Continuation of a report generated by a model with database tools. The report deals with a DNA stretch of 64,000 bases, from contig JBBDMI010000006.1 of assembly GCA_040878395.1 (NCBI GenBank), forward strand, positions 67,145 to 131,144, read 5' to 3'; not shown here. This DNA comes from Candidatus Babelota bacterium. Its GTDB lineage: Bacteria; Babelota; Babeliae; Babelales; Vermiphilaceae.

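Follow-up and report, generated by a model that had tools for sequence, protein, structure and literature searches.

Extent and bacterial origin of the locus

Every ORF of the window was scanned against Pfam, and the seven proteins without a hit were searched again at E ≤ 10. Between positions 109 and 54582, the window carries 52 CDS, 45 of them on the minus strand, with approximately 94% of this island coding and a median gap of 27 nt between same-strand genes. The GC content of the window is ~33-38%, with values of 0.335-0.34 for the island and 0.36 for the flank. Rfam and tRNA scans of the window gave no match. The window proteins correspond to the locus tags WD055_024xx-026xx, and many of them, the GT6 protein included, are listed as 'hypothetical' at NCBI.

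Logan contigs of run SRR27977663 containing the window sequence were identified by exact-sequence matching. One of these contigs shares the leftmost 3509 nt of the window with 100% identity and extends farther to the left. The genes encountered in this direction are listed below; negative coordinates lie to the left of the window edge.

Genes to the left of the window, in leftward order
gene 1, interrupted by the window edge: GT2 glycosyltransferase, 245 aa
next: NTP_transf_2 protein, AsnB-like amidotransferase, two GT4-type transferases
-6933..-5593: Wzx/Polysacc_synt (PF01943) flippase, 446 aa
past the flippase: class I methyltransferase, 86-aa ORF
-9487..-8096: polytopic GT-C-fold protein, 463 aa
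farther left: GNAT gene, then the housekeeping genes for SHMT, EF-P, NusB, rhodanese, two NDK and S1

The flippase is 100% identical to NCBI entry MEX0849064.1 from 'Candidatus Dependentiae bacterium', encoded on a 133,822-bp contig. As the leftward contig carries Wzx and a second GT-C protein, the glycan-biosynthesis locus contains a flippase and comprises ~64 kb in all, ~54 kb of which lie inside the window. The first-pass annotation had described an island devoid of export genes. Within the window no exporter family was indeed found, and a single window protein is polytopic, but the apparent lack of export genes was an artefact of the window edge, as Wzx and the second GT-C adjoin on the same contig.

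The gene group around Wzx (Wzx module) was found next to SHMT, EF-P and NusB in two other assemblies as well. In one of them (L081), Wzx is 82% identical and, as in the window, the TPR-GT and f1331 genes come after it (families designated by f are named after the start coordinate of the window gene). In the other (L083), Wzx is 63% identical, and unrelated genes stand next to it. Because no recognisable island genes follow the Wzx module in L083, module and island may be functionally separate.

An erroneous inclusion of giant-virus or eukaryotic DNA in a bacterial MAG, through faulty binning or assembly, would be in line with the low GC content, the eukaryote-like domains (ankyrin, WD40) and the occurrence of relatives of many island families on IMG/VR viral contigs. 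Such an artefact was considered exceedingly improbable. The bacterial housekeeping genes are contiguous with the locus on an independently assembled Logan contig with an overlap of 100% identity, the same arrangement by SHMT, EF-P and NusB was found in two other assemblies, and the same core is present in dozens of Dependentiae MAGs. In addition, island and flank are close in GC content, and both the gene packing and the ParE and Legionella_OMP genes are of a bacterial kind. Given the bacterial flanks and a synteny shared by three assemblies, the idea that the island is of viral origin or a contaminant was rejected.

Enzyme families of the island

Thirty-eight of the 52 CDS were identified as glycan enzymes by HMM, PDB or fold evidence. 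The remaining CDS comprised five weakly supported proteins, five members of orphan families and four genes forming an insert. Most family assignments of the first-pass annotation agreed with Pfam. This applied to seven GT2, six GT32 (Gly_transf_sug), the GT6, the methyltransferase-GT2 (MT-GT2) fusion, one GT-C (PMT_2), two Gmd, Fcl, ManC, the WecB-WecC fusion and the ADH_zinc-GFO fusion. Five Sulfotransfer_1 proteins were confirmed (one of them borderline, 22.1 bits), with 5'-PSB and 3'-PB motifs in all five. The protein assigned as UXS matched human UXS1 with an E-value of 1.5e-106 and possesses an N-terminal hydrophobic segment. The GT6 protein scored 146 bits, matched human ABO transferases at ~1e-31 and has kept the DxD motif. 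At least ten methyltransferases had been proposed; eight domains at or above the Pfam cut-off and one weak domain were found.

Two genes had been assigned to GT47. Their Exostosin scores are below the Pfam cut-off, and the nearest relative is the GT114 enzyme A075L of chlorovirus PBCV-1 (E 2e-28 for 22404-23360; the gene at 15399-16334 encodes a paralogue with 35% identity). A075L is a cytosolic beta-xylosyltransferase that transfers Xyl to Fuc and is the founding member of CAZy family GT114 (PMC11571054). For the protein encoded at 19492-20481, formerly termed GT11-like, a fucosyltransferase fold is predicted, with neither an HMM match nor a relative among PDB sequences. Its AlphaFold model (46 homologues, pLDDT 94) gave 36 PDB matches at E ≤ 1e-3, all of them fucosyltransferases, including AtFUT1, FUT8, POFUT2 and NodZ, and its structural matches in BFVD include giant-virus fucosyltransferases.

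A profile of the six GT32 paralogues, across which a D-x-D-F-E-C motif is invariant, was nearest to the Legionella effector SetA (8x4j, E 1.2e-17) and also matched toxin glycosyltransferase domains such as TcdA (~6e-8), with Och1 as a distant match. The nearest relatives of the GT2 paralogues are the bacterial enzymes K4CP, TarP/S-like enzymes and SpsA, and the nearest solved structures to the sulfotransferases are cytosolic SULTs, StaL and CurM. The GT9 domain of the TPR protein remained below threshold, and a PDB search with this protein matched the TPR part alone. The DUF579 and AAA+ assignments were not confirmable because Pfam at E ≤ 10 gave nothing for the seven no-hit proteins. PDB sequences were also searched with profiles of f19492, f25861 and f13566, none of which produced a usable match. 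Family f25861 is represented by two free-standing copies and by the C-terminal domain of the GT2 protein at 37140-38672 (hhalign probability 98.8%); by sequence similarity, a domain of this type is apparently also C-terminal in the GT2 protein at 33799-35220.

The proposal that the island is built from Golgi-type enzymes thus holds in part. It is appropriate for the GT6, the six GT32 and the UXS with its N-terminal segment. It does not apply to GT47 exostosins, DUF579 methyltransferases or Golgi carbohydrate sulfotransferases, which had all been named; for the last group, cytosolic SULTs are the closer relatives.

Predicted signal peptides

N-terminal signal peptides (SP) were detected with our own hydropathy and charge heuristic, not with SignalP. 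According to this heuristic, ~44 of the 52 CDS begin with a K/R stretch followed by an uncharged hydrophobic segment; these are referred to as tagged in the following. The heuristic falsely flags Rossmann-fold N-termini (WecBC-like proteins, 4/4), and counts for WecBC-like proteins were left out. The hydrophobic segments have a median length of 16 aa (47 scored, including the first transmembrane helix of the GT-C and two Rossmann-fold false positives), and many of them end with small residues. For 38 of these 47, positive charge is greater in the flank on the N side than in the 15 residues past the segment. Such a bias indicates an N-in, C-out topology, as expected if the C-terminal catalytic domain is exported.

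Tagged enzymes include the six GT32/SetA-like proteins, seven GT2, the two GT114-like putative xylosyltransferases, the GT6, the fucosyltransferase-fold enzyme, the DUF6492 protein, f25861, other orphan families, the five sulfotransferases and at least seven methyltransferases. Tagged nucleotide-sugar enzymes are UXS, ManC, Gmd (38677-39825) and Fcl. To our knowledge, these four enzymes are soluble and cytoplasmic everywhere else. Untagged proteins of the island are WecB-WecC, the oxidoreductase, a second Gmd (45899-46996), the MT-GT2 fusion and an FkbM protein (7269-7934). Outside the window, every enzyme of the Wzx module, including the GT4 and AsnB proteins, is untagged, as are the controls EF-P, NusB and SHMT. 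Tagged and untagged isoforms occur in pairs, with Gmd at 38677 and 45899, only 6 kb apart, and FkbM at 17439 and 7269. Just outside the locus lie two NDK genes, of which the 178-aa copy has an SP-like N-terminus; the NDK pair recurs in a relative.

The tagged Gmd was searched against 1.84 billion cluster representatives, resulting in 49,416 homologues, mostly fragments and fusions. Among the best 150 of these, the first ~29 query residues never align. Ten Gmd representatives with N-terminal extensions were inspected, and a comparable hydrophobic segment was found in one of them only (P0408).

Related loci in Dependentiae and Chlamydiae

An alignment of the GT32 paralogues was searched against 185,579 species genomes, giving 243 relatives; the species of the window is absent from this collection, and the best identity was 45%. 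The best 77 of the 243 loci belong mostly to MAGs of Dependentiae/Babeliales, and also to environmental Chlamydiae and a few MAGs otherwise labelled. Many Dependentiae loci contain 20-33 of the families of the window within 20 kb. The core order is WecBC, ADH/GFO, [GT-C], ManC, [Gmd], Fcl, Gmd(SP), GT2, [f10489], GT32, GT32, f25861, GT2, GT2, GT6, FUT-like. This core forms a conserved same-strand array over many MAGs, with tagged and untagged genes interleaved. Relative to it, the block 41009-44804 is a lineage-specific insert, in accordance with its earlier description as an insertion into the island. The loci richest in island families encode almost no polytopic protein besides GT-C. A single unassigned six-TM ORF was seen at the edge of one related locus (L016).

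In most Dependentiae orthologues of Gmd, Fcl and ManC, the signal peptides recur despite differing sequences; a few Fcl and ManC orthologues have none. Counts for further families are given below.

Proteins with an SP-like N-terminus according to the heuristic
GT32: Dependentiae 34/40; Chlamydiae 18/22
GT6: Dependentiae 8/8; Chlamydiae, family not found
GT114-like: Dependentiae 9/10; Chlamydiae 3/3
f25861: Dependentiae 11/12; Chlamydiae 2/2
ADH/GFO oxidoreductase: Dependentiae 0/3; Chlamydiae, not found; otherwise labelled MAGs 0/3

Relation to giant-virus glycosylation clusters

Among IMG/VR contigs, 93 relatives of the GT32 family were identified; many of these contigs have a low GC content, with lengths of up to 421 kb. 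Where the contigs are giant-virus-like, GT32 is clustered with GT114-like proteins, f10489, FkbM, f25861 and members of the same GT2 subfamily, for example in L135, which derives from a contig of 421,673 bp. The clusters of giant viruses (PBCV-1 A075L, A064R, A111/114R; mimivirus-type) thereby have GT32, f25861, f10489, FkbM and the GT2 subfamily co-clustered as in the island. GT114 homologues and fucosyltransferase-fold enzymes are likewise common to both, as are nucleotide-sugar enzymes and sugar methyltransferases of their own, and the products of both are expected to be rich in Fuc/Xyl and methylated. The island differs in being located on a bacterial chromosome and in being coupled to Wzx and GT-C enzymes.

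N-terminal hydrophobic segments were absent from the viral copies of GT32 (0/63), GT114-like proteins (0/22), f10489 (0/11) and FkbM (0/4), and present in 1/10 viral copies of f25861. Consistently, most glycosyltransferases of PBCV-1 are predicted to be soluble, cytoplasmic and without signal peptides (PMC9614988), whereas nearly all island enzymes are predicted to be Sec-tagged. As judged from these sequences, the toolkit appears to be untagged when made by host ribosomes in the host cytosol and tagged when made inside an intracellular bacterium. Among the comparative arguments for enzymes that can function only after leaving the bacterial cytoplasm, this difference is the strongest.

Membrane-associated steps

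The 463-aa protein has no Pfam match. Its AlphaFold model (pLDDT 93.9, from 39 sequences) was compared to PDB structures, and the best 19 matches were all GT-C enzymes. AglB, STT3 and PglB came first (TM ~0.5, E ~1e-3, marginal), and PMT, ArnT, ALG3 and AftB next. The sequence contains no WWD motif; the C-terminal WWDxG domain of oligosaccharyltransferases (OST) is absent, and the protein ends in TM helices. An identity as Wzy or WaaL was rejected because every good fold match is a GT-C. Similarity to polyprenyl-phosphate sugar synthases (AglJ, ArnC and Dol-P-hexose transferases) was seen for both the interrupted 245-aa GT2 and the MT-GT2 fusion.

Pfam searches of the ~74 kb read, i.e. the window and its left extension, revealed no Wzy, Wzz, OPX, ABC exporter or WaaL. 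An initiating phosphoglycosyl transferase of the WbaP/WecA type was also absent from these ~74 kb (-16.9 kb to 54.6 kb of the window). Lacking initiating transferase, Wzy and ligase in this region, the primer step is incomplete; the initiating transferase may be encoded elsewhere in the genome. The polytopic proteins of the locus are Wzx and the two GT-C only, with no candidate for a nucleotide-sugar or PAPS transporter among them, and no route across the outer membrane was identified at the locus.

Proposed pathway

Taken together, the locus appears to be a Wzx/GT-C-primed bacterial glycan locus with a tailoring module homologous to giant-virus clusters and almost wholly tagged for predicted export. 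Its gene content and synteny were observed, as were the N-terminal segments and their conservation. From these observations we infer export, the compartment, the cofactor source, the order of steps, the acceptor and the glycan structure. A pathway divided between two compartments, in which synthesis of a lipid-linked primer is followed by extracytoplasmic elaboration, is considered to have about even chances of being correct.

The first stage would take place in the cytoplasm and at the inner membrane and would involve untagged enzymes. Precursors would be supplied by WecB-WecC (UDP-ManNAcA), the second Gmd and the MDR-Gfo oxidoreductase. A lipid-linked primer would be assembled by the AsnB-like amidotransferase, the two GT4 and a GT2, and flipped across the inner membrane by Wzx. 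The 245-aa GT2 and the MT-GT2 fusion, as putative polyprenyl-phosphate sugar synthases, would be paired with the two GT-C enzymes (one PMT_2-like, the other with a fold nearest to OST), whose site of action would be the outer face of the inner membrane.

The ~44 tagged proteins would carry out the second stage, be it in the periplasm, at the cell surface or within the cytosol of the host. ManC, Gmd and Fcl would provide GDP-Fuc, and UXS would provide UDP-Xyl. The glycan would be elongated by more than 20 glycosyltransferases and modified by methyl- and sulfotransferases. On the basis of the GT114, FUT-fold and GT6 homologies, motifs of the Xyl-Fuc and Fuc-Gal-(Gal/GalNAc) type are plausible. 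The probable product is a surface glycoconjugate with Fuc/Xyl, methyl and sulfate groups, which would replace the LPS O-antigen.

GTP, sugar phosphates, UDP-GlcA, SAM, PAPS and NADPH would ultimately be supplied by the host. We know of no bacterial periplasm that holds nucleotide sugars, PAPS, SAM or GTP. Dependentiae are intracellular parasites of protists, and a supply of cofactors by the host fits the parasitism and minimal metabolism of this phylum. It also fits the signal peptides of the cultured Dependentiae bacterium C. destructans, which are present on 44% of its CDS and on 78% of its ankyrin proteins (PMC6561590), and the lack of most LPS genes in Babeliales (PMC4776705). A further fit is the precedent of Chlamydia, which secretes glycogen enzymes into the vacuole and uses host UDP-glucose there (PMC4829429).

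In a wider reading, Dependentiae and, to some degree, environmental Chlamydiae may have taken over the cytosolic glycosylation toolkit of giant viruses and furnished nearly every enzyme, those for GDP-Fuc and UDP-Xyl synthesis included, with a Sec signal, a proposal whose probability is put somewhat below one half. It is tentatively suggested, again with slightly less than even probability, that Leloir synthesis, methylation and sulfation proceed outside the bacterial cytoplasm, fuelled by host cytosolic nucleotides. The periplasm or cell surface might then serve as a Golgi-like compartment primed by the Wzx/GT-C step, which is held to be possible with the balance a little against it.

Alternative explanations

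The N-terminal segments might do no more than hold the enzymes at the inner membrane, facing the cytoplasm. The locus would then encode an ordinary cytoplasmic assembly line: whole repeat units would be completed on a lipid carrier before Wzx flips them, and the displayed polysaccharide would resemble a capsule or an O-antigen. The export prediction rests on a heuristic, every cofactor needed is a cytoplasmic molecule, the locus includes Wzx, GT4 and an AsnB-like enzyme as is typical of classical loci, and the GT2 paralogues have their closest relatives among bacterial enzymes of polysaccharide synthesis. This explanation was nevertheless regarded as unlikely. With a median of 16 aa the segments are too short for a stable membrane span, their charge bias places the C-terminus outside in 38/47 cases, and homologues of the same families in viruses have no such segment. 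The soluble enzymes Gmd, Fcl, ManC and UXS are tagged, yet an untagged Gmd is encoded only 6 kb away. The absence of Wzy, Wzz, OPX, WaaL and an initiating transferase from the ~74 kb read and the reported scarcity of LPS genes in Babeliales also argue against a polysaccharide of this kind.

If, on the other hand, the tagged enzymes were effectors that remodel proteins or glycans of the host, their link to the Wzx module would be merely positional, in agreement with the missing island genes after this module in L083. The resemblance of GT32 to SetA (E 1.2e-17) and to toxin glycosyltransferase domains, the similarity of the sulfotransferases to cytosolic small-molecule SULTs, ankyrin proteins in and beside the island with the same type of SP, and the huge predicted secretome reported for Dependentiae (PMC6561590) would all suit an effector arsenal. 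A GT-A DXD catalytic domain is common to the six GT32 paralogues and the toxins of the SetA and clostridial type. The GT32 proteins of the island differ from these in their length of only ~310 aa without a targeting or translocation domain and without a T4SS/T3SS delivery module; compared to SetA, they carry a Sec tag instead of a T4SS signal and are part of a conserved glycan operon. Against the effector explanation, tagged genes are interleaved with untagged precursor enzymes and GT-C in one conserved same-strand array, and the homologous toolkit of giant viruses makes the virus's own surface glycans (PMC11571054, PMC9614988). Supply routes for GDP-Fuc and UDP-Xyl are complete, and the number of transferases, which cover many linkage types, exceeds 20; such a set is typical of the building of complex glycans and not of single-residue modification. 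A low probability was assigned to this explanation.

Comparison with other glycosylation systems

With Wzx-dependent loci (O-antigen, capsule, Campylobacter pgl), the locus has in common a MOP/Wzx flippase, untagged GT4/GT2 enzymes, an AsnB-like amidotransferase, genes for UDP-ManNAcA and GDP-sugar precursors, and a GT-C that would act after flipping. In contrast to these loci, Wzy, Wzz, OPX, WaaL and an initiating transferase were not found in the ~74 kb read, and in contrast to OST of the Campylobacter pgl type, the GT-C is devoid of the OST C-terminal domain. The ~44 enzymes with predicted export, including Leloir-type glycosyltransferases and nucleotide-sugar synthases, have no equivalent in classical loci, where such enzymes are not exported.

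In Chlamydia trachomatis, glycogen is formed in the inclusion lumen by enzymes outside the bacterial cytoplasm that are fed with a host nucleotide sugar (Gehre et al. 2016, PMC4829429), similar to the proposal for the island, where export is predicted. There, a handful of T3SS-secreted enzymes produces a storage homopolymer, whereas the island encodes dozens of tailoring enzymes with predicted Sec signals.

A logic similar to that of the proposed pathway is followed in the eukaryotic ER/Golgi, with a lipid-linked primer, a flippase, GT-C transfer and subsequent action of tailoring transferases on the far side. The tailoring transferases of both systems have N-terminal hydrophobic segments, and GT6, GT32 and anchored UXS are common families. 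The locus differs from the ER/Golgi system in that no nucleotide-sugar transporters were seen in it and in that the enzymes of GDP-Fuc synthesis are tagged as well; moreover, its sulfotransferases are of the cytosolic SULT type, the supposed GT47 are GT114, and DUF579 was not confirmed.

According to textbook knowledge, bacterial glycan synthesis consists of nucleotide-sugar chemistry in the cytoplasm followed by export, and extracytoplasmic steps use lipid-linked donors only. For obligate intracellular bacteria, this rule would be called into question by more than 20 Leloir-type glycosyltransferases with signal peptides, and likewise by the signal peptides of sulfo- and methyltransferases, ManC, Gmd, Fcl and UXS. 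If the proposal is true, the locus would encode the first bacterial glycan pathway with extracytoplasmic steps that depend on nucleotide sugars. Literature searches on glycan genes of Dependentiae, Babela, TM6 or symbionts yielded no description of the locus, and the Chlamydia case was the only precedent found for the idea of export.

The data point to a surface-glycan gene pool common to giant viruses, Dependentiae and Chlamydiae that infect protists. For the Babeliales, reported to lack most LPS genes, the product of the locus is a concrete candidate for the surface coat. The locus also provides a functional context for DUF6492 and for the orphan families f1331, f10489, f13566, f25204 and f25861.

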